Source: an uncultured Actinomycetes bacterium (GTDB lineage Bacteria > Actinomycetota > UBA4738 > HRBIN12). Taken from it: a stretch of 64,000 nucleotides of DNA. The notes under the pieces were generated by a model that worked only from the letters and a program-made list of their open reading frames with translations, did not search any database and was not told the origin of the DNA. The stretch spans positions 544,001 through 608,000 of the forward strand of contig OY969934.1 in the NCBI GenBank assembly GCA_963704725.1, written 5' to 3'. The first letter of the stretch is position 1. Every line of letters starts with the position of its first letter. The translations under genes were made by a program, and so were the position numbers. Below, piece by piece: positions 33,684 to 49,223 of the stretch.

Positions 33684-36052
33684 TGCGCGGGCGCGTCCTG
33701 CGCACCAAGCTGCGTCGGGACATCGGCCGGCAGTGGCCGCAGTTCGGAGCCATCGTCGTGCTGATCACGCTGGGTGTGGCGCTGTTCGCCGCGTCGTACG
33801 ACGCGTTCCGCAACCTCGAGGCGTCCTACGCGAACCTGCACGTTCAGCTGCGTTCGGCGGACCTGTGGATCACCGGTGGCGACACCGAGCGGATCGCCGC
33901 GACGGCCTCGGCCACCGACGGCGTCGCCGACGTCGTGACCCGGATCCAGGCCGATGTGCCGCTGCGGTTCGACGGCGTCGACAAGCTCCGGGGCCGGATC
34001 ATCGGCGTCCCCGCCGATCATCAGCCGGCGGTGTGCGGCCTGCTGCTGCTGCACGGCGGCTACGAGGTCGCCGGGCCGGAGGCCCTCGTGGAGCGCCACA
34101 CGTTCGACCATTTCGGGCTGGCCCTGGGCGATCGCGTCGACGTGCTGCCGGCCGGGTCGAGCGCCTGGATGCCGCTGCGGGTGACCGGGGACGCCGAGTC
34201 CGCCGAGTACATCTGGCCGGCTCGAAGCCGCCAAGACTCCATCACCCTGCCCGACGACTTCGGCGTGCTGTTCGTGTCCGAGGACCTCGCCGCGTCCATC
34301 GTCCAGGGTGGGCCGAACCAGGTCCTCGTCCGTCTCACCGCCGGCGCGGCCCCCGACGTGGTGGACCGGCTGCGCAGCGAGGCCACGTCGCTCGGCGCCA
34401 CCGAGGTGCTGACCCGCGCCCAGCAGGCATCGAACGCGCTCCTGCAGGAGGACATCGACGGCTTCAGCGAGATGTCCGCTGCGTTCCCGTTGCTGTTCCT
34501 GACCGCGGCGATGATGGCCGCCTACGTGCTGGTGACCAGACGCGTGCTGAGCGAGCGCAGCCTCATCGGCATGATGCTGGCGAGCGGCCTGCACCGACGC
34601 CAGGTGTTGCGCCACTACCTCGGCTTCGGGCTCACCGCCGGCGCGATCGGGTCGGTGGTCGGAGTCGTCGCCGGCACCGCCGCGGCCCGGACGATGACGC
34701 GGCTGTACCTGGGGGCCATCGACCTGCCGAACCAGGTCGCCGTCTACGACATCCGCGCGGCGACGTTGATCGCCGGGCTCGCCTTCGGTGTCGTCGTCGG
34801 GGGGTTGTCCGCCGCCGCCCCCGCGTTGCTCGCCTCTCGGATCGAGCCGGCCGAGGCCATGCGCGGCCTCGTCCCGGCGACCGGCGGCCGCCGGAGCCTG
34901 CTCGAGCGGCTGGTCCCGCCTTTTCGGCGGCTTCCCACCCGGTGGCGGCTGGTCCTGCGCGGGATCGGCCGGAACCGGCGGCGGACCTCCTACACGATCC
35001 TGGGCGTGACCCTGTCGATGCTGTTGATCCTCGTGTCGTGGTCGATGTTCGACACGATGGACGGCCTGTTGAACACGCAGTTCCAGCGTGTCCAGCTGCA
35101 GGATGCGCGCGTGGGGTTCACGGGTCCGCAGGACGCAGGGGTGCTCGAACGGCTCCGCGCCGTCGTAGGGGTGTCCGAGGTCGAGCCGGTCGTCACGGCC
35201 TCCGCGGCACTGCGCGGGCCCGCGGGCAGCTACGGGTCGGTGCTGCTGGCGCTGCCCAGCAACACCGACATGCACGGGTTCGTGCTGACCGGTGGCTCGG
35301 AGACGACGCTCTCCGAGGACGGCGTGCTCGTCGGGGTCGGCGCGGAGGGCTTCATCGGCGTGCCGGTGGGAGGGACGGCCACGCTCGACGTCCCGGACCT
35401 CGGTCTGAGCCTCCCCGTCAGGATCGACGGCTACCTCGACGAGCCACTCGGCACCTTCGTCTACGCGCCCCTGGATGCGGTGCGCCGGATGGCCGGGCAT
35501 CCGCTCCCGATCACCTCCGCGATGCTGCGCTTCAGCGACGGCGCGGATCGGGATGCGATCAGGCGCTCGGTGCAGGGCCTCGACATCGTGGCCTCGTACG
35601 AGGACGCGAGATCGCTGGTGGCCCTCTTCGAGGATTACACGGGCCTGTTCTACGGCTTCGTCGGCGCGATGCTCGTCCTCGGGGCCCTGATGGCGTTCGC
35701 GATCATGTTCACGACGATGTCGGTCAACATCGTGGAGCGGTCCCGAGAGGTGGCCACGCTTCGGGCGAACGGCGTGCGACTCCGCCAGATCTCGCGGCTG
35801 ATCTCGTCCGAGAACCTGATCATGACGCTCATGGGCATCGTGCCGGGGTTGATCGCCGGCGTGCTCGGGGGCCGTGCCCTGATGGCTTCGTACTCCTCGG
35901 ACCTCTTCCGGCTGAACCTCGTCGTACGAGCCCAGACGCTCGTCCTGGCGGGAGCGGCGATCGTCGTCGTGGCGCTCGTGTCGCAATGGCCGTCGCTGCG
36001 AGCGGTACGCCGGCTCGACATCGCCTCCGTGGTGCGCGAGCGCGACACGTGA
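33683..36052 (+). CDS. ABC transporter permease, duplicated FtsX/MacB-type domains
   Basis: Two FtsX-like halves (ERSLIGMMLASG; ERSREVATLRANG). TGATG overlap. Confidence 0.9.
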   Translation: MRGRVLRTKLRRDIGRQWPQFGAIVVLITLGVALFAASYDAFRNLEASYANLHVQLRSADLWITGGDTERIAATASATDGVADVVTRIQADVPLRFDGVDKLRGRIIGVPADHQPAVCGLLLLHGGYEVAGPEALVERHTFDHFGLALGDRVDVLPAGSSAWMPLRVTGDAESAEYIWPARSRQDSITLPDDFGVLFVSEDLAASIVQGGPNQVLVRLTAGAAPDVVDRLRSEATSLGATEVLTRAQQASNALLQEDIDGFSEMSAAFPLLFLTAAMMAAYVLVTRRVLSERSLIGMMLASGLHRRQVLRHYLGFGLTAGAIGSVVGVVAGTAAARTMTRLYLGAIDLPNQVAVYDIRAATLIAGLAFGVVVGGLSAAAPALLASRIEPAEAMRGLVPATGGRRSLLERLVPPFRRLPTRWRLVLRGIGRNRRRTSYTILGVTLSMLLILVSWSMFDTMDGLLNTQFQRVQLQDARVGFTGPQDAGVLERLRAVVGVSEVEPVVTASAALRGPAGSYGSVLLALPSNTDMHGFVLTGGSETTLSEDGVLVGVGAEGFIGVPVGGTATLDVPDLGLSLPVRIDGYLDEPLGTFVYAPLDAVRRMAGHPLPITSAMLRFSDGADRDAIRRSVQGLDIVASYEDARSLVALFEDYTGLFYGFVGAMLVLGALMAFAIMFTTMSVNIVERSREVATLRANGVRLRQISRLISSENLIMTLMGIVPGLIAGVLGGRALMASYSSDLFRLNLVVRAQTLVLAGAAIVVVALVSQWPSLRAVRRLDIASVVRERDT

Positions 36053-36228
36053 GCCGCCGAGGTCCGCGGCGTGAGCGGTTTGGGAACACTCCCGAACCGT
36101 GAGGCGGACCAACACGGCTTTCGGGCGCAGCTGGAGGATGTGGTCGAGCGGCGCCCTCCTGCATTCGGCGTCCGCGCGCGGCGGCAGCCGAACAGTCGGG
36201 TTGCGGTGTGCGATGCCCAGCTTCTTCC

Positions 36229-37851
36229 CTAGATCAGCCGGTAGAACGCATGTGCCACCTGTCCGCTGTCGAACGCCAGGAAGAGCGTGTAGCACCCTCT
36301 CTGTCTGGGCGTCCGCCACACGTAGATGAAGCGCGTGACCCGGCCGTAGGCGAGACCGGTGCCGACGGTCGGCACGGTCTGGGTCGCCCCGTCAGGGTCG
36401 ACGGAGAACGCCGAACAGCTCGATGGCTTGGAGGTCACGGTGCGCACGGCTGCGAGGGACGACGTGTACGTGCTGTGCGCATCAGTGAGCTGGAATCGTA
36501 CGATCGAAGGCCACCCGGCCAGGGCGACGTTCACGTTGGGAGGCGAGGTCAGCGGGAAGAGGAACCGGATGTCGTATCCCACCCGATAGGTCACCGTGAC
36601 GGGGTCGGCGACGTTGCCGGACGAGTCGCTCGACTCCACGCGGAAGACCTTCTCCCCGACCGAGGATGTGTCGATCGGCGTCCCGTTCGGCACGGTGCCG
36701 CGACACACGGGCGCGGGATCGTCGTCGTCGATGCACGAGTAGTCGGCATCGACGATCGAGTTGAGGACATAGGTCTGATCTGCGGGAGCGAGGACGGTGA
36801 TCTTCGGCGCGGTCGAGACCCCCCAGTCGCTCGGCACCTTGTCGCTCGACACGCCGGCTATCGCCGTCTGGTTCGACCCGTCGGGGTTCATCAGGACGAC
36901 GGCGGGGCCGAGGCTCCCGTTCGCGAGGGGGGTCCGGTAGCTCAGGTACACGATCTTCGTTCCGTCCGGGGAGTAGATGGGATCGAAATCCGCGTACCCG
37001 TCGTTCGTGACGGCATGCTGGCCGCTGCCGTCCGCGTTCATCGCCCAGATCTCTCCCGCGCCCACCTCATCGACCTGGTCCCGCGTCCAGACGATCTTCG
37101 AACCGTCGGGTGAGAAGTCCGGCTGGCGGTCCACGACCGACGCGGCGGTGTCGGTCAGCCGGGTCTGGCCGGATCCACTCACGTCCATGACGTAGATCTC
37201 GTAGTTGTTGGGAGGTGGCGTGCCCGGCAAGCGAGAGATCTTGGTGAACGCGATCTTGGTGCCGTCGGGCGAGAACGTCGGCTCGACGTCGGCGATCCCG
37301 TAGGGATCGGGGAGATCCGGGTTCACCGTGAGGGGCGTTTGCCCCGAGCCATCGGCGTTCATGATCCACAGATCGATCCCTCGTTCGAACACGATCTTCG
37401 TTCCGTCCGGGGAGATCGCCGGGTTGGAGTCGTTGAGATCGTCGTCCGTAAGCCGCACCTTGTTGGATCCGTCGGCGTCCATGATCCAGATCTCGCCATC
37501 GGTCAAGCTGAGCTCCGGGCACGCGTGGGTCCAGTAGGCGATCTTCTTCCCGTCGCCGGAGAACGTCGGGTCACGGTCGCAGATCGAGTTGTCCGTCAGC
37601 TTCGTCGAGTTCCCTCCGTTCGCGTTCATGACGTAGATCTCGAAGTCACCGTCATCTCCCACGACCGCGATCTTCCCGTTCGGTCCGGGGTACGTCGCCG
37701 TAGCCGGCTCCGCCGTCGAAATGACCATCGTGGCGATGAGAGCGGCAGCGGCCAGGATCGAGAGACGTCCCCGCGAGATCCGGCGCCCGAACCCGATGCC
37801 CACCGTCGAGGCCCGGCCGCGCTGAATCCGGAACCGGCGTGCCCGTTCCAT
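36229..37851 (-). CDS. Secreted TolB-like (PD40 repeat) beta-propeller protein with C-terminal Ig-like/PxKF-like region
   Basis: Signal region then ATYPGPNGKIA. Repeats P.FSPDG.KI.F and IW.MNADGS (about 5-6 copies). GGAGG RBS before ATG 37851. Confidence 0.85.
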   Translation of the reverse strand: MERARRFRIQRGRASTVGIGFGRRISRGRLSILAAAALIATMVISTAEPATATYPGPNGKIAVVGDDGDFEIYVMNANGGNSTKLTDNSICDRDPTFSGDGKKIAYWTHACPELSLTDGEIWIMDADGSNKVRLTDDDLNDSNPAISPDGTKIVFERGIDLWIMNADGSGQTPLTVNPDLPDPYGIADVEPTFSPDGTKIAFTKISRLPGTPPPNNYEIYVMDVSGSGQTRLTDTAASVVDRQPDFSPDGSKIVWTRDQVDEVGAGEIWAMNADGSGQHAVTNDGYADFDPIYSPDGTKIVYLSYRTPLANGSLGPAVVLMNPDGSNQTAIAGVSSDKVPSDWGVSTAPKITVLAPADQTYVLNSIVDADYSCIDDDDPAPVCRGTVPNGTPIDTSSVGEKVFRVESSDSSGNVADPVTVTYRVGYDIRFLFPLTSPPNVNVALAGWPSIVRFQLTDAHSTYTSSLAAVRTVTSKPSSCSAFSVDPDGATQTVPTVGTGLAYGRVTRFIYVWRTPRQRGCYTLFLAFDSGQVAHAFYRLI

Positions 37852-37908
37852 CGCCCACCTCCCATACTCGGCGTTCCCGAGCCCTGTTCGGCTCCGATCG
37901 ATCCCCGC

Positions 37909-37952
37909 AGGGTGGCGTGGGACCTTCGGGCAGGCTTCGGGCAGGGTCAAGG
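37909..37952 (-). promoter_or_regulatory. Tandem 11-bp direct repeat CCTGCCCGAAG x2 plus -10-like CACCCT
   Basis: Two perfect repeats at 37945-37924, 9-nt spacer, CACCCT. 27/31 identical to the site at 41810-41840. Confidence 0.75.
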
Positions 37953-38056
37953 GGCGGCGCCACCTCGCGGGTCAGGATCCCTCCGCCTCGGTCGACCGGG
38001 TGGGACCGCCCGCCTGGAGTGGACGAGACAGGGGACAGACGTTTCGGGAACGGCGA

Positions 38057-38245
38057 TCATGGCTCACGGCCCTCATCCCCGCCGTTCGGGCCTATGGCGG
38101 TGGCGAGGAACTCGAGCAGCTCCGCCGGGGAAGCGAAGGGGCGCTCCGTTCCGCTGGCGACGTGTCGCACCAAGCCCCGGATCTCGGGATCGATCCGGTC
38201 TCCTCCCGTGCCCGGTGTCCACAGCCTCACGATGAACGTCTCCAC
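38057..38245 (-). CDS. Small hypothetical protein (62 aa), METFIVRLW...RGLVRHVASG.E..F....ELLEFL
   Basis: GAGAGGA RBS, compact beta-beta-beta-alpha-like pattern, own repeat-bearing promoter, directly downstream of the large regulator. Confidence 0.75.
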   Translation of the reverse strand: METFIVRLWTPGTGGDRIDPEIRGLVRHVASGTERPFASPAELLEFLATAIGPNGGDEGREP

Positions 38246-38293
38246 GAGATCCTCTCGAGCACGGGCGAGGCTGGCGTCTGGTTCGCGGTTCGC

Positions 38294-38330
38294 ATCGTGC
38301 CGGCATGGATTCGGGTGTCCTTCGGGCAGG
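38294..38330 (-). promoter_or_regulatory. Tandem 11-bp repeat CCTGCCCGAAG-GACACCCGAAT plus -10-like CACGAT
   Basis: Same unit, period and 9-nt spacer as the sites at 37.9 kb and 41.8 kb. Confidence 0.7.
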
Positions 38331-38341
38331 GTTGCGGCGGA

Positions 38342-41300
38342 CTACCGGGTCGGAACGGGAAACGCAAGGGCCTCGATGCCGAGCTCGGTCATCTTGGCCG
38401 TGTATGCGCGGTAGGCGCGTCTGGCCTCGCCGTGTCGTCCCGCCGCGGTGAGGCTGTCGATCAGCGCCAGGTGGGCGCGTTCGTCGAAGGTGTCTCGCTC
38501 CAAGATCCGGAGGAGGTACCGAGAGGCGGCGTCGTGGTCCCCTCGGGCGATGGAGTCCCTCGCGAGGGTTCGGGCCACTCCCACGTAGGCGTTCCGAGCT
38601 TCCTCGCGAAGCGCGATCGTCCATTCCTCGTACGGGTCTTCCGGCAGGAAGTCACCTGCATACGCGGCCTCGGCGGCGACCAGGCGGGCGGCGGCGTCCG
38701 GTGCTCGGTCGCGCCCCGACCGTAACCCTGCCGTGGCGTCCGGTAGGAACGATTCCACGTCCACCCAGACGTTCGCCAGGTTCAGACGGACGGTGTCGCG
38801 GTCGGCCGTCACGAATCGTTCCGCGTCGAACAGCTTGTCCGGATCGAGCACGCTTCGGAGCGTGGACAGGGCCACCGACAGCCGGCTCGACGTCTTCGTC
38901 GGATCCTCGTCGGGCCACATCGCCTCGATGAGCTCCTCGCGGTGCACGGGCTGGCCGCGCCTGGCCACCAGGAACTTCAGGAGCGAGCGCGCCTTGCGCG
39001 ATTGCCAATCCGTGAGCGGGACGGGGGCGCCGGAGCGGAGGACACGGAACCCTCCGAGGGAGTGGATGGCCACGGGGGGAACCTCCCGCGCCGCGACGGC
39101 TGCGCGGAGATCGCCCGCCGCCGCCGCGTATCGCCGCAGGCCGAGCTCCTGGAAGCGCCGTTCGGCCCGCTCAGCGAGCGCCAGCGATCCCTCGCCCGTC
39201 GTCAATCGAGCCAGGGCCAGATCCACGCGAGCCTCCCCGATGGGACCGCCCAGCTCCCGCCAGATCGCGCGGGCCTCTTCCAGCCGGTGCCGCTCCTGCT
39301 CGGGATGGAGAGACGAGAGCGCTTGAAGCTCGAGCGACTCGGCGACGGCGGCCCGGTCCCGGCGGCTCCTCGCCACCGTCGCTGCCTCGTCGGCCCGGGA
39401 CGCCGCTTCCGCACGATCGTTCCGAGCGAGCGCACCCCACCCGGCCGCCAGCAGCGCCCCCTGCTGCGACAGCACGGCGCCGTAGCCCACCGCTCGCTCG
39501 GCCAGCCGGGCCGCCTCCTCAGGCTCCTCTTCCGCCAGGATCCTCGCCAGTCCCGACAGGGCGGGTACCAAACCCTGGACGTCGCCCGATCCCTCCGACA
39601 CCGTCAGCGTCTCTTCGTACGCGGCGCGCGCCAGCGCCAGATCCCCGCGTTCCCTGAAGACGTCGCCGAGCAGCCCGAGCGGATAGCCGATCATCCGCGA
39701 GCCCAGCCGCTGGTAGATGGCCTTCGCGGCCTCGAGATCCGCCACCGCCTCGTCCATCCGACCCATCCGGAACAGCGCGTCGCCGCGATTGGTCAGGGAG
39801 AGGGCCTGGAACCAAGCGTACCCGGCCAGCTCGGCCAGCTCGATCGCCACGCCCAACTCGTCGAGGGCCTGCTCGAAGTAGCTCTCCTCGATCAAGCGAG
39901 AGCCGCGATTGCCGCGGATCCGGATGATCTGGAGCGCGTCGCCCGCCCGTTCGGCGTGATCGAGGGCCCGCAGGTAATGCGCATCGTTCGCTCGGCGATC
40001 GCTGTCGACGGCCGCCACCATCGCCAGCACGGTGTGTGCGATGGCGAGCGCGCGGTCGTCGTGCAGCCCTCGGGCGATGTCGAACGCACGTTGCGCGAGT
40101 GCGCGGCACTGGTCCATCTCGCCGCGAAGCCATCGCACGGACGCCGTCCACGCAAGGAGCGTCGCTCGGTCGGCCGAGTCCTCACCCACAGGCAAGCCAC
40201 GCGTGTACGCGGCCAGGGCCTCGTCCAGGTCGCCGCGGAGATGATGGATGAGCCCCATCCGCCAGGCCACGGCTGGGTCCAGGGGGCCCTCGCCCGCGAT
40301 CCGCCGGTAGCACTCGAGCGCCCCGTCCCAGTTCCCCCGGATCTGATGTGCCTCTCCCACCACCTGCTCCACGGCCGCCGACCGCATCGCCTCGGGGAGC
40401 CGAGCGGCCGCCGCCACCACCGCCCCCGCGGCGCCGGAGGCAAGGAGCGCGGAGCCATGCTCGGCCAGCACTCGCGACGCCCCCGAGAGATCGTCGATCT
40501 CGCACAGGCACGACAGCGCTTCGGCCGCTCGTCCGTTCGCTTCGAACCACAGGGCCGCTGTTTCGAAGAGTCCGGCCCGTGCCTGGGGTTCCAGGGGCAA
40601 GCGCTCCAAGACGAACTCGCGGACCAACGGGCTCAGCTGGTACCAGCCCTCCTCCCCCCGGGGCTCGACGAAGAGGCCTCGCCGATCCAGGCCGATCAGC
40701 AGCTCGCGCGCGCCATCGATGCCGAGCGCCTGGGCGAGCCCATCGGTGAACCGCTCCAGGGGCGCGACGGTGCGGACCAGAGCGGTGACCTCCGGAGCCT
40801 CACGGGCGAAGACCTCCTCCGCCAGATAGGAGAAGACGGGACCTCCCGGCCGCCCGACCCGCTCCAGCTCCCGGGGCCGCTCCTTCGCCGGCACCGTCCG
40901 AAGTGCCTCCGCCGCGAGTCGCACCGCCACGGGCCATCCCTCCGTGACCTTGCGCATCGGCACCACGAGGTCGAGCGATCCCTCGCCCAGGAGGCGACGA
41001 AGGACCTCGGAGGTCTCGTGGTCATCGAAGGCCAACGCGGCCCCGGTGATCTCCGACACGTCCCCGCGCCCACGCATGCGTTCGACGGAGAACGGGGGAT
41101 TCTCTCGCGATGACAGCACGATGTGCAGGCGAGGGGGAGCCTGACGGCACAGACCCTCGATCAGCGCCATCGATGGGTCATCGGCTCGCACCTCGTGCAC
41201 GTCGTCGAGGATCAGCGTCAGGTCCGATCGAAGGTGCTCCTGAAGGGCGCCACACAGCAGCGCGGCGAAGGCCGGAGCCCGGACGGCCCCATCCCTCTCG

Positions 41301-41690
41301 GCCTCGGGGCCGCGGGCGGAGTCCCGGCCGAGGGACACATCGCGGGTCAGGCCGGGCACTCGCAGGCGGAGCGCCTCGAGCAGGCCGGCGGCGAGCGCGT
41401 CGAGGTCACGATCCTCAGCGGTGAGCGTGTACCAGGCGCCGTTACATCGCTCGACCCATTGCCCCAAGAGCGTCGACTTCCCGTAGCCGGCCCCCGCGAC
41501 GACGATGGTCAGCCGAGCCTCGGCCGCTTCGCGCAGCCGGCTCTCCAGGGCCGCTCGGGGGACGACGTGTTGCCTGGGTCGCGGGCGGAAAGACCTTCGT
41601 GCCGAGCAGCGCCGGCGGCGGCGAGACCGAGGTCCCCGTCGTCTCGAGATCTCGGGGACCGCCTTTGCGGCTTCGATCGTCTCGCACCAT
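38342..41690 (-). CDS. Large MalT-like regulator: P-loop NTPase + TPR + C-terminal winged-helix/BTAD; frameshift near 41585
   Basis: N-terminal ALLGTKVFPP from ATG 41690 joins AGAGYGKSTLL, LILDDVHE and TEGWPVAVRL. Then TPR repeats, SLGGFRV, WQSRKARSLLKFL, LSTLRSVL, YAGDFLPED.YEEW and DERAH. Confidence 0.88.
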
Positions 41691-41809
41691 GCGCGTTGAC
41701 CCCCGGGAGGTGCAAATGATAGCCCGCCGCCGTTGCGGCCCACCCGGGGTGACCGGCCGATGGATCGGCCCTCATCCGATTCCGTCCGGACCGCCACGAT
41801 CTCGATGCG

Positions 41810-41853
41810 CCTTCACCCCGCGCGAAGCCTGCGCGAAGGTGGTGCGTCAGTCT
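41810..41853 (+). promoter_or_regulatory. Tandem 11-bp repeat CCCGCGCGAAG-CCTGCGCGAAG plus -10-like CAGTCT
   Basis: Repeats at 41817-41838, 9-nt spacer, CAGTCT at 41848-41853, upstream of the secreted-protein operon. Confidence 0.75.
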
Positions 41854-41908
41854 CCCGAGAAGTACCGGGTCAGAGAGGCTCGGGAGCTCAGGAAGGGGAG
41901 GTGGAACG

Positions 41909-42406
41909 ATGGAACGAGCACGCAGACCCTGGGTCCAGGCGGCAGTGATCTTGACCACGGCAAGCGCGGTGGGGTGGGCGCTCGTGGCGGCTCCGGCGGG
42001 CGCGAGCTCCGGGCTCACCAGGAAGGACGTGCGGAAGATCGCCACCAGGGTCTTCCACGCGAACGCGGCGGCGCTCGAGGATACGTGCCCCTCCGGTACG
42101 GAAGCGGCCGCCGGCAGCTGCGTCGAGACGACCACGCGGGGGCAGGCCTCCTGGGTGAACGCGAACAGGAACTGTGGGGACCTCGGCCGTCGACTTCCGA
42201 CGCCGGGAGAGCTCGTGGCGGCGTTCAGCACCCCGGGCATCACACCCGCGACCGAGATCACCTCCGACATCTACATCTCCGACGGCAGCGGGTCGACGTT
42301 CACGCAGATCATGGCGGTGGTCACCGCGAGCAGCAGCATCGGCGGTCAAGCCGATCTCAGCACGGTGGCCAGCTACCGGTGTGTGGCGCCGATGTCGAAT
42401 GCCTGA
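41909..42406 (+). CDS. Secreted Cys-containing protein (C-type-lectin-like fold suspected)
   Basis: Signal peptide; CPSG..GSCVE..W..A...C...GRRLPT..EL..YRCV pattern; GGAGG RBS. Confidence 0.7.
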   Translation: MERARRPWVQAAVILTTASAVGWALVAAPAGASSGLTRKDVRKIATRVFHANAAALEDTCPSGTEAAAGSCVETTTRGQASWVNANRNCGDLGRRLPTPGELVAAFSTPGITPATEITSDIYISDGSGSTFTQIMAVVTASSSIGGQADLSTVASYRCVAPMSNA

Positions 42407-43487
42407 ATCGCGACCCGGCGGCGGGCCGAGGCGCTTCGCGGCCGCCGCCGGGGCCGCGCTGGTCCTCGTGTGGGCCGGGGTATCGTCCGTCCCCGCCTCG
42501 GCCTCGCTTCCCGTGGCGTTCCCCGACGGCCAGTGGCACGGGACCTCGCTGTACGGCGGCGCCATCAGCAAGGCGGACGTCTCTGCCACGGCGTTCGGCG
42601 ATGTGACGTTCGACCTGACCGTGTCGAACGGCGAGGTGACCGACGGCACCCTGAGCGTCGGCATGTCTGCCACCGGCACGTCGTCCACGGCGACCGCGGA
42701 TCTCACGATGACGGGAACGCTCTCGATGGGCGGCACCGCCGCGACCGTCGAGTTCGCCGGCCCCGTGACCGTGAAAGGGTCGGCGTCGTCCGGGGCGTTC
42801 ACGGTCCCGATCGAGTTCACCGCGACCGATCACGGGACGTTCTCGCCCTCGTACGTGACCTGCAATCAGGTCACGGGGGATCTCGCGGTCCAGGCGCGGC
42901 ACGTCCAGCAGGCGGCGGGCTTCGCGACCACCGTCACGGGGCCTTTCGTGGCGGTCCGGACCGCCGGCGGGGCCGGGGCCGTGGACGAGGTGATGGGCAA
43001 GTACCACTCGCTGAACGACGCGATGCTCGACGCGCTCGGGGGCGATCCCTCACCGGAACAGGTCATCGAGCTGGCCCAGCAGTACGAGGCGCTGGCCGCT
43101 GAGCTTGCCTCGATCGGCGCGTGTGAGTCGCTTCCCGCCGGGTTCGAGTCGGGCCTTTCGGACAAGATGATCGGCGCGTTCTTCCAGGACCTGCTGCAGA
43201 AGGCCCTGGATCATCCGGAGATGTACTCGGCGCAGGCGTTGTTGTCGTTGCTCGGATCGGGCCTGCGGATGGACGCCGTCGGCAACGACGTCGCCGGCTC
43301 GGGACCCTACCAGGCGTTCGCGAAGAACCTGCTGGCGGAGTTCGAGGCCACCCTGGAGTCGAAGCTCCAGGCGGCGGCCAAGGCCGGCGACTCGCAGACC
43401 GTCCTGGACATCCTCGTCGGTGCCCAGCAGTACGGCCTCGACGAGCTGGCGAACGAGGCGCAGGGCCTGCTGGCCACCGGAGGATGA
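42399..43487 (+). CDS. Secreted hypothetical protein (beta-rich N-terminal domain, helical C-terminal domain)
   Basis: ATG overlaps the upstream gene end. Signal peptide ending ASA; Thr/Gly-rich beta region followed by an amphipathic helical region. Confidence 0.75.
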   Translation: MPESRPGGGPRRFAAAAGAALVLVWAGVSSVPASASLPVAFPDGQWHGTSLYGGAISKADVSATAFGDVTFDLTVSNGEVTDGTLSVGMSATGTSSTATADLTMTGTLSMGGTAATVEFAGPVTVKGSASSGAFTVPIEFTATDHGTFSPSYVTCNQVTGDLAVQARHVQQAAGFATTVTGPFVAVRTAGGAGAVDEVMGKYHSLNDAMLDALGGDPSPEQVIELAQQYEALAAELASIGACESLPAGFESGLSDKMIGAFFQDLLQKALDHPEMYSAQALLSLLGSGLRMDAVGNDVAGSGPYQAFAKNLLAEFEATLESKLQAAAKAGDSQTVLDILVGAQQYGLDELANEAQGLLATGG

Positions 43488-43969
43488 TGGCGATGCGAGT
43501 TGGGATCAGGAGGCTGACCGCGCTCATGACCGTGGCGGCGGCGCTCGCCACGGCCGCCGGATGCACGGCGGCAGCCGACGGTGCCTCGAGCGGCGACGGT
43601 GGTTCGGACGGGAGGACGACCGGAGGCGGGGGATCCACGGAGTCGAGCTCGGCGATCTCCGCGCCCGGGGTGGACTCGGTGGTGGAGCTTCGTGGGCCGG
43701 CCGAGACCGGGGCCGGGTCGATCCCGACGTTCGAATGGTCCGCCGTCGACGGCGCGGGAGCGTATCGGCTCGTGGTGAAGGACGCCCAGGGAAACGCCAC
43801 GTGGGCGTGGGAGGGAACCGACACCGCGATCGCGTTGGGGGCCGTGCCCGACCGTGAGGAGGGCGACGGTGGTCCGATCCTGACCGAGGGATCGTTCTGG
43901 AGCGTGGTGGCGCTCGACGGCGAAGGTCACGTCGTCGCCGTCAGCGAACTACGTCCCGTCTCTCCCTGA
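43484..43969 (+). CDS. Hypothetical lipoprotein with Fn3/Ig-like domain
   Basis: Lipobox TAAGC, Gly/Ser linker, PTFEWSAVDGAGAYRLVV..WSVVALD. ATGA overlap. Confidence 0.75.
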   Translation: MMAMRVGIRRLTALMTVAAALATAAGCTAAADGASSGDGGSDGRTTGGGGSTESSSAISAPGVDSVVELRGPAETGAGSIPTFEWSAVDGAGAYRLVVKDAQGNATWAWEGTDTAIALGAVPDREEGDGGPILTEGSFWSVVALDGEGHVVAVSELRPVSP

Positions 43970-44367
43970 GGAGTCGTGGAGAGGGACATGCCGATGGGTG
44001 CGGGCATCGTATCGCGTCGCTCGACCGGGGCCTGTGCCGTTCCCAGCTGCCTTCACCGACATCAGCCCGGACGACGACGGGCCGCTGCCCGGGATCTCCC
44101 CAGGCCGTTCTTCGCGTACTTCGACCACGATGCGGGCGGGCGCGTTGCAGGCGATCGACATCGGGTCCGTTGGGCGCGGCGTATGGCGCGTCATGTTGGC
44201 CGCGTAGTGGGGCGCCCATGGAACGCCACAGTCCAACGGCTGATCGTCGACGGCCTACGCGGAGCGTGAAGTCGTTCGTTGCACTCCGCGTGATGCGAGC
44301 TCATCACGCTCGGAACACGGGAGGGGGAGGCCCGCTCCTTCATGGCACCAGAACCTGTTGCTCGTAG

Positions 44368-44459
44368 CGGAGGCGGACGGGAATCGAACCCGCCTGGGAG
44401 CTCTCGCCCCCACACCGGTTTTGAAGACCGGGGGGCCCACCAGGCGCCCTGACGCCTCC
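44368..44459 (-). tRNA. selC: tRNA-Sec (anticodon UCA)
   Basis: GGAGGCG acceptor pairing with CGCCTCC-G, anticodon arm CCGGT-CTTCAAA-ACCGG, long variable arm, GGTTCGATTCC T-loop. CCA not encoded. Confidence 0.93.
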
Positions 44460-46056: not shown

Positions 46057-47256
46057 TCAGGGGACGGCCGGCGGGCGGCGGTACTCGAAGTGCATGCCGT
46101 CGGGCAGGATGAACGTCCCGCCCCAGATGAACCCCCAGTCCTCGAACACCCGGACCATCCGCGGGTCCTGGTTCGGCTCGGCGCCGAAGGGGTTCTGCGG
46201 CACGTTGATGTCGAGGGCGATGCCCCAGGAGTGGTGGGAGAGGCCGGCGCTCCGGATCCGGTTGATGTGCCGTGGGGCGAAGCACCCCGAGTAGCTCGTG
46301 ATCGTGTCCTGCAGGCCGAGGTCGACGATCTCGTGGATCGCCCCGCGGATCTGCGGGAACAGCGCGACGTTGCACGTCACCGAGCCGAGCAGCGCCACGT
46401 GGCGCGTGGCGATGTGCGTTCGGACCCATGCCGGGTCGAGCGTGAGGAACCCCGGCAGACCCGGCCGCGGCTTGGCGGCGAACTCGCCGAACAGCTCCTT
46501 GATCGCGACCGGCGGCAGCACGGCGTCGCTCTGGCGGAAGTACGGCGTGTCGCCGGGGGCCCGGACGCGCACGAGCGTTCCGGGAGGCAGGACCTGCCGG
46601 ACGGCCTTGGCCAGCCGGCGGACGGTGGGCTCGTCCTCGGGCACGAGCAGGGCGTAGCGATTGTGGGTCACGCCGATCCGCCGCCCGAGGTCTCGCGAGA
46701 CGAGGAGCTCGTGCGCGCCGACGAGCTCGTCCGGCAGGATCGCCGCAACCTCGATCCGCACCTCGCCGAACTGCAGGACCGCGCCCGGTCCGAGCCCCCG
46801 CAGCTTGGCGCTCGACTCGCCGAGGATCCCCTGCCCCTCCTCGAGCGCCACGGTGACGCCGCGATCGGCGGGCGGAAGGAACGGGGCGTACGCGCGGGGT
46901 CCCACGGCGGCGACCTCGAGCGGGATGGCGAACGTCCGCGGTGGGTCGTCCACGACCTCGCCGCTCTCGTCGAACGAGCGCGTCAGCCACGTGTTGTCGC
47001 TCGCCACGACCACCGCGCGGCGGATCTCGGGCATCGCGGCGACGGCCTCCCCGAAGCCGCGCGGCAGCCCGCCGGGCGTCCAGACGAGGAACGTGTCGGG
47101 GCTCTCCGGGGTGGTCGCGAACGTCGGGGGCGACGCGACGCCCGGCCCGTCGATCGTCACCGCCGCCGTGCCCTGGATCGCGAGGGTGAGCGCCGTGCCG
47201 GCGACGAACCCCACGAGGGCCGCGCCGGTCACGCCGCCGGCGCGCCGGAGGCTCAT
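46057..47256 (-). CDS. Membrane-anchored M15 family metallopeptidase (D,D-carboxypeptidase/endopeptidase-like)
   Basis: GCFAPR, LSHHSWGIALDIN, FEDWGFIWGG, DGMHFE. Start ATG 47256 overlaps the upstream stop. Confidence 0.85.
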   Translation of the reverse strand: MSLRRAGGVTGAALVGFVAGTALTLAIQGTAAVTIDGPGVASPPTFATTPESPDTFLVWTPGGLPRGFGEAVAAMPEIRRAVVVASDNTWLTRSFDESGEVVDDPPRTFAIPLEVAAVGPRAYAPFLPPADRGVTVALEEGQGILGESSAKLRGLGPGAVLQFGEVRIEVAAILPDELVGAHELLVSRDLGRRIGVTHNRYALLVPEDEPTVRRLAKAVRQVLPPGTLVRVRAPGDTPYFRQSDAVLPPVAIKELFGEFAAKPRPGLPGFLTLDPAWVRTHIATRHVALLGSVTCNVALFPQIRGAIHEIVDLGLQDTITSYSGCFAPRHINRIRSAGLSHHSWGIALDINVPQNPFGAEPNQDPRMVRVFEDWGFIWGGTFILPDGMHFEYRRPPAVP

Positions 47257-49223
47257 CCCGCCCCCGCTGGAGCGCTCGGGGTTCCGGGGATCGACGCCGC
47301 GATCGCCGCCAGCTCGTCCAGGCCGAGCCCGGGCGCGTCGAGCGACCGGTAGAGGCCGTTCGAGACCCACTCGAGCAGCGAGCGGCCGGGGGTCCACCGG
47401 CCCGGCGAGCCGGCGACCTCGACGGCCGACTGGCGGGCGGCGCTCGCCGGTGGCAGCTCGGCGGCGGCCTCCAGGTGCAGGCGGATCGCGCCGGGCCCCG
47501 CGTCCGCCTCGGCGTCTCGGAAGTACATCGTCACGCCCGGCACGTCGTCGATCCCCACGAGCTCCACGCTGGCCAGGGTGAAGCCCGCCGGGAGCCGTTC
47601 GGGCGCCGCGACGGCGAACGGGACGGCCAGGGCCGCCTCCTCCAACGAGACGCGTTCGACGACGGCGCCGTCGGTGGCGTGGGTCCGCCACGACTCCGGC
47701 ATCGCAAGGCCGACCACCGGCAGGGCGGCCGCCGCCTCCAGGAGCTTGGCGCGGGGCAGGTTCGACTCGAGGTACAGGTCGGTACCGGCGGCGTGGATCG
47801 ACAGCAGCCGGCCGTGCCAAGGGGTGGCCGGTTCGTAGTACGCGACGCCGCGGCCCACCGGCACCTCCTCGGCCCGCAGGCTCACGGCGCCGAACGGGGC
47901 GTCGCCCGTCCACGACCGCGTCTCGCCGAGCCGCAGGAACGAGAGCCCGTCGGCGTAGGTCACGACCGCCTGGCCGCCCTCCGGGCTCTCCGGGATCACC
48001 GCCCGGTACAGGTCCAGCCCGCCCAGCTCGGCCGGCGCCAGCGGGTCGAACCCGGCCCGAGCCGCGACCTCGGCGGGCGGCACGTGCTCGGCGCCCTGGT
48101 CCTCGGTCCGATCGGTGGCCGGGATCCGGAACACCGAGGCCGCAGGCCGCGAAAGGCTCACGGAGAGCGCCGCCACCTCGAAGACCGGCGCGCGGGAGGG
48201 CTCCTCGGGCAGCCCGAACCGCTCGGCCCACGCATCGCGCTCGTGGCCCGCCGCCGGGTAGACCTCCCACCGCAGGGGGAACCAGCTCCCCTCGTCGAGC
48301 CAGATGCGGACGCGGTCCTTGGAGAAGAACGGCCGCCACTCGCCGCCGATCGACAGGAACGGGAAGAGCGACTGCGCGCGCTCGAACGGCACCTGGACGA
48401 TCACGGCGGGACGACCCAGGACGGTGTCGCGTCCGATCACGGTGACGGCCGCCGGCTCGGCCAGCGCGGTCAGCGGCAGCACCAGGTCGGTGGGGGCCGG
48501 CGCCCTCGAGGAGAACGGCATCCGGTTGCGGACGGAGGTCACCCGCTGGGGGCATCGGGCGGCGGGGCACAGGTCCGGCCCGGACGAGTACCAGTGGTCG
48601 CGGTCGACGATCAGCCGGAGGTCGGTGGGCGTCGCCGGAGACGGGTAGATCGTCCGGTCCTCGACGTCGAGGCGGAAGCGCTCGGGGGCCCGGAACCAGA
48701 CGTGCATCGAGAGCTCGCGGCGCGGGACGTCGGGGGAGAGGTGGAGCTCGCTGATCGAGAACGTGGCCTCGTACGCCGTCAGGCCGGCCGCGGCGGCGGC
48801 CACGTCCCGGCTGATCCGTTCGGCGGCCAGCGCCGAGGTGCGTTCGGGCGCGTCGTTGGACCACGGCCCGCCGACCACGAGGCTCCCCACGAGGAGGCCG
48901 GCCACGAGCGCCGCGGCGGCGGGGGTGAGGGACCGCATCCGTGGGCGGCTGCGGGGCAGGCGCATCGGACGGACGATCCGCAGGCCGGGCCGGCGGGCGC
49001 CGGTCTCCGCCTCGACCGCGGACATGATGGGCTCGACCAGGTCGGGGATGGCGGGGGCGACCTCGAAGCGGACGCGTTCGCGCAGCCGGTACGCGCCGCG
49101 CTCGAACGCCCGGCACTCGTCGCAGCCCTCGAGGTGGTGCTCGAGCGCGACGAGCTGGCGGTCGGGGATCCGCTCGCCGTCCAGACGCTCGGAGATCAGG
49201 CGCTCGGCCTGCTCATGATCCAC
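47253..49223 (-). CDS. Zinc-binding anti-sigma factor (zf-HC2) with TM helix and large extracellular LolA/RseB-like region
   Basis: HLEGCDEC (HxxxCxxC), TM AAAALVAGLLVGSLVV, WFRAPERFRL, IWLD...FPLR, two similar C-terminal modules. Confidence 0.8.
   Translation of the reverse strand: MDHEQAERLISERLDGERIPDRQLVALEHHLEGCDECRAFERGAYRLRERVRFEVAPAIPDLVEPIMSAVEAETGARRPGLRIVRPMRLPRSRPRMRSLTPAAAALVAGLLVGSLVVGGPWSNDAPERTSALAAERISRDVAAAAAGLTAYEATFSISELHLSPDVPRRELSMHVWFRAPERFRLDVEDRTIYPSPATPTDLRLIVDRDHWYSSGPDLCPAARCPQRVTSVRNRMPFSSRAPAPTDLVLPLTALAEPAAVTVIGRDTVLGRPAVIVQVPFERAQSLFPFLSIGGEWRPFFSKDRVRIWLDEGSWFPLRWEVYPAAGHERDAWAERFGLPEEPSRAPVFEVAALSVSLSRPAASVFRIPATDRTEDQGAEHVPPAEVAARAGFDPLAPAELGGLDLYRAVIPESPEGGQAVVTYADGLSFLRLGETRSWTGDAPFGAVSLRAEEVPVGRGVAYYEPATPWHGRLLSIHAAGTDLYLESNLPRAKLLEAAAALPVVGLAMPESWRTHATDGAVVERVSLEEAALAVPFAVAAPERLPAGFTLASVELVGIDDVPGVTMYFRDAEADAGPGAIRLHLEAAAELPPASAARQSAVEVAGSPGRWTPGRSLLEWVSNGLYRSLDAPGLGLDELAAIAASIPGTPSAPAGAG

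Follow-up and report, generated by a model that had tools for sequence, protein, structure and literature searches.

A permuted MalT-type large SARP and its candidate small-protein target family in several bacterial phyla

The transcriptional activators termed SARPs (for Streptomyces antibiotic regulatory proteins) are known almost only from Streptomyces antibiotic clusters, and carry their SARP domain at the N-terminus. The available portion of a 2024 review sorts them into small, medium, large and SARP-LAL classes, with the SARP domain N-terminal throughout (PMC10972967). Among these, the closest described counterpart of the locus considered here is AfsR-AfsS of Streptomyces, as presented in the accessible parts of that review and of a second paper. 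AfsR combines a SARP domain, a STAND (signal transduction ATPase with numerous domains) NTPase and tetratricopeptide repeats (TPRs) in a single protein of ~1000 amino acids (aa), in which ATP relieves an inhibition that the SARP domain experiences from the NOD and TPR domains (PMC10936776). AfsR directly activates afsS, an adjacent gene for a protein of ~60 aa (PMC10972967, PMC10936776), at a site that it shares with PhoP (PMC10972967). Here, we describe a module of six open reading frames (ORFs) at positions 36229-43969 of a 64,000-nucleotide stretch of contig OY969934.1, from an uncultured Actinomycetes bacterium (assembly GCA_963704725.1; the whole stretch is referred to as the window), in which the SARP domain is instead C-terminal, on a MalT-like switch. 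The locus encodes a large SARP of the MalT type in which the domains are permuted, together with a member of a small-protein family as its putative target, and occurs in several phyla.

A first-pass annotation of the window had stated that no characterized system with this layout was known, a statement that is not supported on comparison with AfsR-AfsS, a close functional analogue with the opposite domain order in the accessible parts of PMC10972967 and PMC10936776. In both systems, the regulator lies beside a gene for a protein of ~60 aa whose direct-repeat box, of 11-bp repeats, sits 8 bp from a poor -10 element. The differences are equally clear, as the SARP domain is N-terminal in AfsR and C-terminal here, the NTPase encoded here is of the MalT type, the afs box consists of two 11-bp repeats where the window boxes consist of three heptamers, the putative regulon of the window includes secreted proteins, and the module is found in metagenome-assembled genomes (MAGs) of Actinomycetota, Chloroflexia, Dormibacterota and Gemmatimonadota.

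The regulator gene (38342-41797, minus strand) encodes 1151 aa when read from GTG 41797, with GTG 41743 as the only alternative start (1133 aa). The domain order initially proposed for its product, a MalT-like NTPase, TPRs and a C-terminal winged helix-turn-helix (wHTH) with BTAD, is borne out by matches to Pfam, NCBIfam, EmbR and AfsR. Residues 71-469 correspond to a MalT-like NTPase (NCBIfam MalT, 1.2e-43, a partial match), the N-terminal 845 aa match the solved structure of MalT in a sequence search (PDB 8bob, 2.4e-19), and TPRs are located at residues ~487-735 (Pfam), giving the P-loop NTPase with Walker A and B motifs followed by TPRs that typifies the MalT clade of STAND proteins. At the other end, Pfam places an OmpR-type wHTH (Trans_reg_C) at residues 933-987 (2.4e-8) and BTAD at residues 1012-1142 (8e-10), both in excess of the curated cut-offs, and the last 236 aa match EmbR (2fez, 2.3e-6; residues 7-227 against 24-242) and the SARP domain of AfsR (2.4e-4). 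The succession of wHTH and BTAD is that of a SARP, but the SARP domain makes up the last ~236 of the 1151 residues. In the orthologue alignment of 14 sequences (that of the window and 13 others), Walker A residues G104, G106 and K107 and Walker B residues D198 and D199 are invariant, and because the G-x-G-K and DD signatures are retained, the NTPase is probably active.

Three other groups of regulators invite comparison. The MalT and LAL (large ATP-binding LuxR-family regulators) proteins have the same order of NTPase, helical repeats and DNA-binding domain, and the N-terminal 400 aa of the regulator align to MalT, but its output is a wHTH with BTAD and not a LuxR-type HTH. Consistent with this difference, Pfam detected no GerE/LuxR-type HTH in the regulator, and its assignment as a MalT equivalog was rejected, with 149 bits against a cut-off of 537 bits and the LuxR HTH missing. 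The SARP-LAL regulators PimR, FilR and SanG also combine a SARP with LAL-type ATPase modules, as far as the available text of PMC10972967 goes, but theirs is N-terminal and they belong to antibiotic clusters, whereas the window regulator has the opposite order and no biosynthetic genes close by. Finally, EmbR of Mycobacterium, a wHTH-BTAD-FHA protein, gives the best match among solved structures to the last 236 aa, but possesses an FHA domain and lacks both NTPase and TPRs.

The regulator belongs to a large family, with at least 599 homologues at E<=1e-20 among 8000 candidates scored. The 120 homologues listed are 52-83% identical to the window protein and 1038-1133 aa in length, barring two truncated entries and one longer protein, and BTAD is present in all of them save the two truncated entries. 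Automatic names given to these proteins include 'MalT/DNA-binding SARP family transcriptional activator' and 'BTAD domain-containing putative transcriptional regulator', so that the NTPase-TPR-SARP architecture is already annotated by pipelines. A search of the open PMC and bioRxiv literature found no papers on a C-terminal-SARP regulator or on the family of the 62-aa protein encoded next to it, the BTAD query being confounded by a journal identifier. One unusual relative (L081:3472-9816, minus strand, in genome G266) is a frame of 2115 aa with ~1000 unassigned N-terminal residues and the regulator architecture in its C-terminal half, the NTPase-like region beginning at ~residue 1071 and BTAD lying at 1975-2099; this protein may be a fused form of the regulator.

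The small protein is encoded on the minus strand at 38057-38245, starts with GTG and is 62 aa long. It is a member of an unnamed family for which HMMER, run exhaustively over 1.84 billion representatives, recovered 159 cluster representatives at E<=1e-3; a word-index search with the 62-aa protein returned itself and one relative only. Of 150 members listed, 148 have lengths of 53-109 aa and the remaining two measure 123 and 125 aa; in nearly all, the alignment starts at the first residues. In a 70-member alignment W9 and G24 are invariant and F4, R7, H28, G32 and F37 nearly so. The 62-aa protein has no match in Pfam or NCBIfam, and the 70 members gave no convincing match to Pfam, with three weak matches of which the best has an E of 0.0044. 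The AlphaFold 2 model has a beta-beta-beta-alpha core with a predicted local distance difference test score (pLDDT) of ~90 across the block, and a disordered tail; Foldseek comparison of the model with the PDB gave nothing at E<0.05, with template-modelling (TM) scores <=0.42. An exported propeptide of the RRNPP type was considered and rejected, as there is no N-terminal hydrophobic signal and the confident beta-beta-beta-alpha core is predicted to begin at residue 4. AfsS is apparently unrelated to the 62-aa protein. A complex prediction of the small protein with regulator residues 471-1151 gave a median of 0.31, against a mark of 0.32, and speaks neither for nor against an interaction.

Three promoter boxes are found at the module within 4 kb, each consisting of three heptamers at 11-bp spacing, 9 nt and then a -10-like hexamer (the gap to the -10 is 8 nt when the repeat is taken as an 8-mer). 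The box of the small gene (38294-38337, minus strand) has a degenerate first heptamer and starts 5 nt past the stop codon of the regulator. That of the gene for a PD40 beta-propeller protein further downstream lies at 37909-37952 (minus strand). The third, at 41810-41853 (plus strand), serves a divergent operon that begins with the gene for a lectin-like protein; it is 13 nt from the start of the regulator ORF and overlaps the divergent promoter region of the regulator. In the available portion of PMC10936776, the repeats of SARP promoters are spaced at 11 or 22 bp, the 3' repeat is 8 bp from the -10, and the -10 and -35 elements are poor, as at afsS; by sequence, the three sites reproduce this geometry. 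The sites of DnrI, ActII-ORF4 and the SARP-LAL regulator PimR likewise consist of three heptamers with 4-nt spacers (PMC10972967, in the part available). A scan of 35900-44400 found no promoter with the sigma-70 consensus.

The suggestion that all three promoters share one repeat motif proved sound, and the motif is non-random by pattern, position weight matrix (PWM) and leave-one-out scans. A degenerate exact pattern occurs at five sites in the 3.45 Mb of the genome, three of them at the module, and a PWM trained on the three boxes scores them at 41-45, while the genome's next best site reaches 20.8. In leave-one-out scans, where each box was scored by a matrix from the other two across 6.9 million positions, the PD40 and lectin boxes each ranked 3rd, straight after the two training sites. 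Furthermore, a PWM derived from the small-gene promoters of other genomes only, a test that is independent of how the window boxes were first spotted, ranks the window boxes 2nd (PD40), 11th and 16th of the same 6.9 million positions. On these scans, the box is found only at this locus in the 3.45-Mb genome.

Placement of the boxes has consequences for neighboring start sites. Because the promoter box occupies 37909-37952, the PD40 gene most likely starts at ATG 37851 and not at the ORF start, 37950, and since the operon box begins 13 nt from the regulator ORF, its occupancy may affect the regulator's own promoter too. The small gene of the window has a leader of ~45 nt with a Shine-Dalgarno-like sequence. 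Near-identical ribosome-binding regions are found at 37822-37853 and 41907-41938, and the PD40 and lectin-like proteins both start with MERARR, an inverted repeat that suggests duplication of the 5' ends of the two genes together with their promoter.

Boxes are also found at small genes in other genomes. Leave-one-out PWM scores were >10 in 14 of 26 small-gene upstream regions, compared to 7 of 5560 background windows, some of these seven being the extra boxes of L060, L074 and L063 described below, and several further upstream regions have variant repeats in the same register by eye. Many of these small genes have their ATG only 6-8 nt past the -10 hexamer, which implies leaderless mRNAs in many other genomes. 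At two Gemmatimonadota loci (L065 and L067), a short ORF beginning MKPT lies between box and small gene, and there the small gene is not leaderless. Extra boxes that resemble the locus's own small-gene box precede genes for proteins of 1180 aa (L060), 721 aa (L074) and 223 aa (L063), all with signal-peptide-like N-termini.

That homologues of the small protein are linked to such regulators, as had been anticipated, is supported by two surveys. A pattern scan based on a 20-row alignment, with one genome per species, yielded 17 small-gene loci, from MAGs of the four groups named above. At 11 of the 17, spread over four phyla, a regulator orthologue (46-54% identity over ~1080 aa) lies directly upstream on the same strand; the two genes are closely spaced in nine of these pairs and 1 kb apart in another, and in the last the regulator is fragmented. 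The small gene has unrelated neighbors at the other six loci, and in four of five genomes searched with such an unlinked small gene, a full-length regulator is present elsewhere; in Dormibacterota, the two can be 75-118 kb apart. In a phylum sample of 401 evenly drawn genomes, a strong small-protein match (E<1e-10) was found in nine, and all nine contain the regulator, versus 21 of 401 overall; the genes are adjacent at eight loci, one of them divergent. The link between small gene and regulator is strong, but not obligatory. Two copies of the regulator appear to be broken with the small gene retained alongside, one in Dormibacterota with fragments in different frames (L073) and one with a single in-frame TGA (G424:C1:3777768-3780989).

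A branch of more distant small-family members (E ~1e-8 to 1e-6) is encoded directly downstream of regulators of other types, as single cases each: a large SARP of the classical kind, ordered BTAD, AAA_16, TPR (L054), a small SARP (L055), and an AAA_16 protein truncated by the contig end (L052). Because these distant members also follow regulators, the pairing of the small protein is suggested to be with SARP-type regulators generally.

Taken together, these observations are best accommodated by a SARP activator that is gated by ligand and ATP and has a local regulon of three promoters, a reading that we consider probable. The TPR region would sense a ligand or a protein, after which ATP binding and oligomerization would release the C-terminal SARP domains or bring them into alignment; an AfsR-like autoinhibition relieved by ATP, with the domain order reversed, is plausible by analogy. 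The SARP domains would bind side by side on three heptamers, one helical turn apart, beside a poor -10, and the bound array would recruit RNA polymerase to the promoters of the small gene, the PD40 gene and the operon. The small-protein gene would be the ancestral target conserved across phyla, as afsS is for AfsR, and the secreted proteins would be lineage-specific additions to the regulon; as a guess, the small protein may act as an intracellular effector or a feedback partner. We infer that the regulator binds the boxes and activates rather than represses, and infer likewise the nature of the signal and the role of the small protein.

The regulator family is found mostly in uncultured lineages, and it comes with a recognizable cis-element and a conserved small-protein target; a complete circuit of sensor, DNA site and regulon can therefore be predicted from sequence alone. 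It also provides a first functional handle on the unnamed small-protein family, and suggests that a large SARP plus a small protein is a more general design than AfsR-AfsS alone would indicate.

A number of observations weigh against a ligand-gated activator that is paired with the small gene and reads these boxes. No small-protein match was found in 11 of the 21 regulator-positive genomes of the phylum sample (three of the 11, G077, G105 and G288, are unpublished), and 13 regulator loci (L075-L087) have no small-family ORF in the fetched flanks. Only one of these 13 has a box by the cross-phylum PWM, and it stands before an unrelated ORF of 73 aa. The co-occurrence counts overstate significance, as related genomes are not independent. 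Within the window itself, the small-gene box is the weakest of the three, with its degenerate first heptamer and a leave-one-out rank of 71 among the 6.9 million positions, and the window heptamers differ from the form that is commoner in other phyla, with the result that their cross-genome PWM scores are low (3.5-9.0). Another regulator of the OmpR type could in principle read the same repeats. The box of the single exception (L076:462-733, minus strand, on G313:C12) is a good one, with a PWM score of 26.8, and follows a regulator orthologue; because it precedes the unrelated 73-aa ORF, the small target may be replaceable.

One alternative, which we rate as possible though clearly not favored, holds that the small protein is the real output of the switch, a pleiotropic intracellular effector in the manner of AfsS, and that the secreted neighbors are a lineage-specific side branch. 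It draws on the conservation of the small gene and its box, and not of the cargo, across phyla, on the confidently predicted core fold and the missing signal peptide, and on the precedent of AfsR-AfsS (PMC10972967, in the part available). The small protein has, however, no detectable kinship to any known family or fold, and secreted cargo is recurrent at such loci, with signal-peptide genes at four of 12 pair loci and extra boxes in three genomes.

The role first proposed for the small protein, that of a dedicated modulator, would have it bind the TPR or SARP part of the regulator in a feedback loop, forming an obligate two-protein switch. TPR arrays commonly bind proteins or peptides, the two genes are tightly adjacent at many loci and co-occur at the level of genomes, and the distant family members that follow other SARP architectures (L054 and L055) hint at a functional tie to SARP domains. 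Nevertheless, about half of the regulator-positive sampled genomes yielded no small gene, the two genes can be 75-118 kb apart in Dormibacterota, and adjacency is equally explained by a regulator next to its first target, as for afsR-afsS. What the sequence evidence describes is a target gene with its own box and a linkage that is not obligatory, and a dedicated modulator is accordingly doubtful. A more ambitious proposal, which we regard as unlikely, is that of a 'transcriptional NLR' (nucleotide-binding leucine-rich-repeat receptor), in which the STAND-SARP protein and a beta-beta-beta-alpha partner of ~65 aa would form a widespread, obligate circuit, made all-or-none by feedback of the small protein on either the TPR or the SARP part. 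Repeated recruitment of this circuit, in at least four phyla, would deploy sets of surface and secreted proteins that are specific to each lineage, and several SARP architectures would share the small-protein superfamily.

It is very unlikely that the repeats are read by a different factor, for instance a response regulator of the OmpR/PhoB type encoded elsewhere, and that the nearby STAND-SARP gene is a coincidence. Regulators of the OmpR/PhoB family do bind direct repeats spaced at ~11 bp, and the afsS site is shared by PhoP and AfsR (PMC10972967, in the portion available). Within the genome, however, the box is confined to this locus; in four phyla it accompanies the small gene, in genomes where the regulator is present; and its distance from the -10 fits SARP promoters (PMC10936776, available part). 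The last candidate is an NLR-like or Avs-like (antiviral STAND) anti-phage or conflict system, in which the STAND protein would detect an invader and switch on surface effectors; the first-pass annotation had raised an NLR-like sensor with defense among its possible roles. This candidate can claim a STAND NTPase with a TPR sensor, a patchy distribution (0 of 22 in the window's own family and no convincing small gene in 60 relatives) and a G+C content of 65-67% at 36-38.5 kb against ~71% in the flanks, but is highly improbable given that PADLOC on all six proteins returned only a generic TPR model (8.9e-8), that the output is a transcription-activation domain and not a nuclease, protease or pore, that the propeller, the lectin-like domain and the other secreted proteins have no toxin signature and no effector domain was recognized, and that no phage or mobile-element genes occur in the immediate flanks.

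As to the distribution that this last proposal invoked, neither the regulator nor the small gene turned up in the 22 sampled genomes of the window's own family, and when 60 close relatives were searched in six frames the small gene gave noise only (best E about 0.009). The host genome is a single contig of 3.45 Mb with ~71% G+C, and its relatives in the collection are mostly MAGs. The dip to 65-67% G+C extends across 36000-38500, the region of the PD40 and small genes, and is compatible with recent gain of part of the module.

The secreted proteins complete the module, whose six ORFs were all confirmed in the window, together with the overlapping three-gene operon, as initially described. The PD40 (TolB-like) beta-propeller protein (36229-37851, minus strand; 540 aa from ATG 37851) is predicted to be secreted or anchored, and is recognized by PF07676 (2.7e-26, in four stretches) and by TIGR02800 (5.7e-38, partial), with a C-terminal PxKF domain (NF038114, 44 bits against a cut-off of 35). 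The operon is divergent from the regulator and its stop and start codons overlap: the lectin-like secreted protein (41909-42406, plus strand; 165 aa, four cysteines) is followed by a secreted protein of 362 aa (42399-43487, plus strand) and by a putative lipoprotein of 161 aa (43484-43969, plus strand), the start of each overlapping the preceding stop codon. The 362-aa protein belongs to no known family, with no Pfam match, nothing in a PDB sequence search and a best ESM Atlas score of 0.75 that offers no lead; the 161-aa protein, for which the first-pass annotation had proposed an Fn3-like nature, likewise belongs to no Pfam family and found nothing in a PDB sequence search. Read by eye, the N-termini of the cargo are signal-peptide-like and the last gene of the operon has a lipobox at Cys27, in agreement with their original description as secreted proteins and a lipoprotein.

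The label 'lectin-like' holds at the level of the fold. The core of the AlphaFold 2 model, built on a 36-row alignment, has a pLDDT >90, and every listed Foldseek match to the PDB is a C-type lectin-like domain (CTLD) with probability 1.00 and E ~1e-3, the TM scores by target being 0.41-0.69 except for two multi-domain mannose-receptor chains at 0.14-0.19. Among the 36 sequences, two cysteines (C71 and C158) do not vary, and two more (C60 and C89) are at least 90% conserved. Pfam has no match to this protein, and on the strength of the model the 165-aa protein is C-type lectin-like in fold. It is rare, with only five homologues in an index of 5.8 billion proteins, and a metagenome scan with the protein as single query returned no loci, while an alignment-based scan returned 37, many on short contigs. 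In one of these, from a near relative (L089), the 5' end of the regulator gene, the box and the genes for the lectin-like (72% identity) and 362-aa proteins are kept together. None of the other 36 has a member of the regulator family, a weak BTAD match in a 1211-aa protein (L107) aside, and no small-family ORF was found in the 37 loci.

The cargo was expected to be variable, and indeed comparison with 32 other loci revealed no homologue (E<=1e-5) of any of the four secreted proteins. Signal-peptide genes, recognized by a crude heuristic, come right after the small gene at four of 12 other pair loci and abut its stop codon at two of the four, and neighbors at the remaining eight look like housekeeping or unrelated genes. 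Because of these four loci, and of the extra boxes in three genomes, secreted cargo is recurrent as judged from gene content.

No enzymes are encoded within the six-gene span, in line with the initial remark that biosynthetic and catabolic enzymes are missing. The genes that flank the module encode an ABC ATPase, a HAD hydrolase and a large M15 peptidase. The last of these (46057-49116, minus strand) is a protein of 1019 aa in which the sole recognized domain is a C-terminal M15 D-Ala-D-Ala carboxypeptidase.

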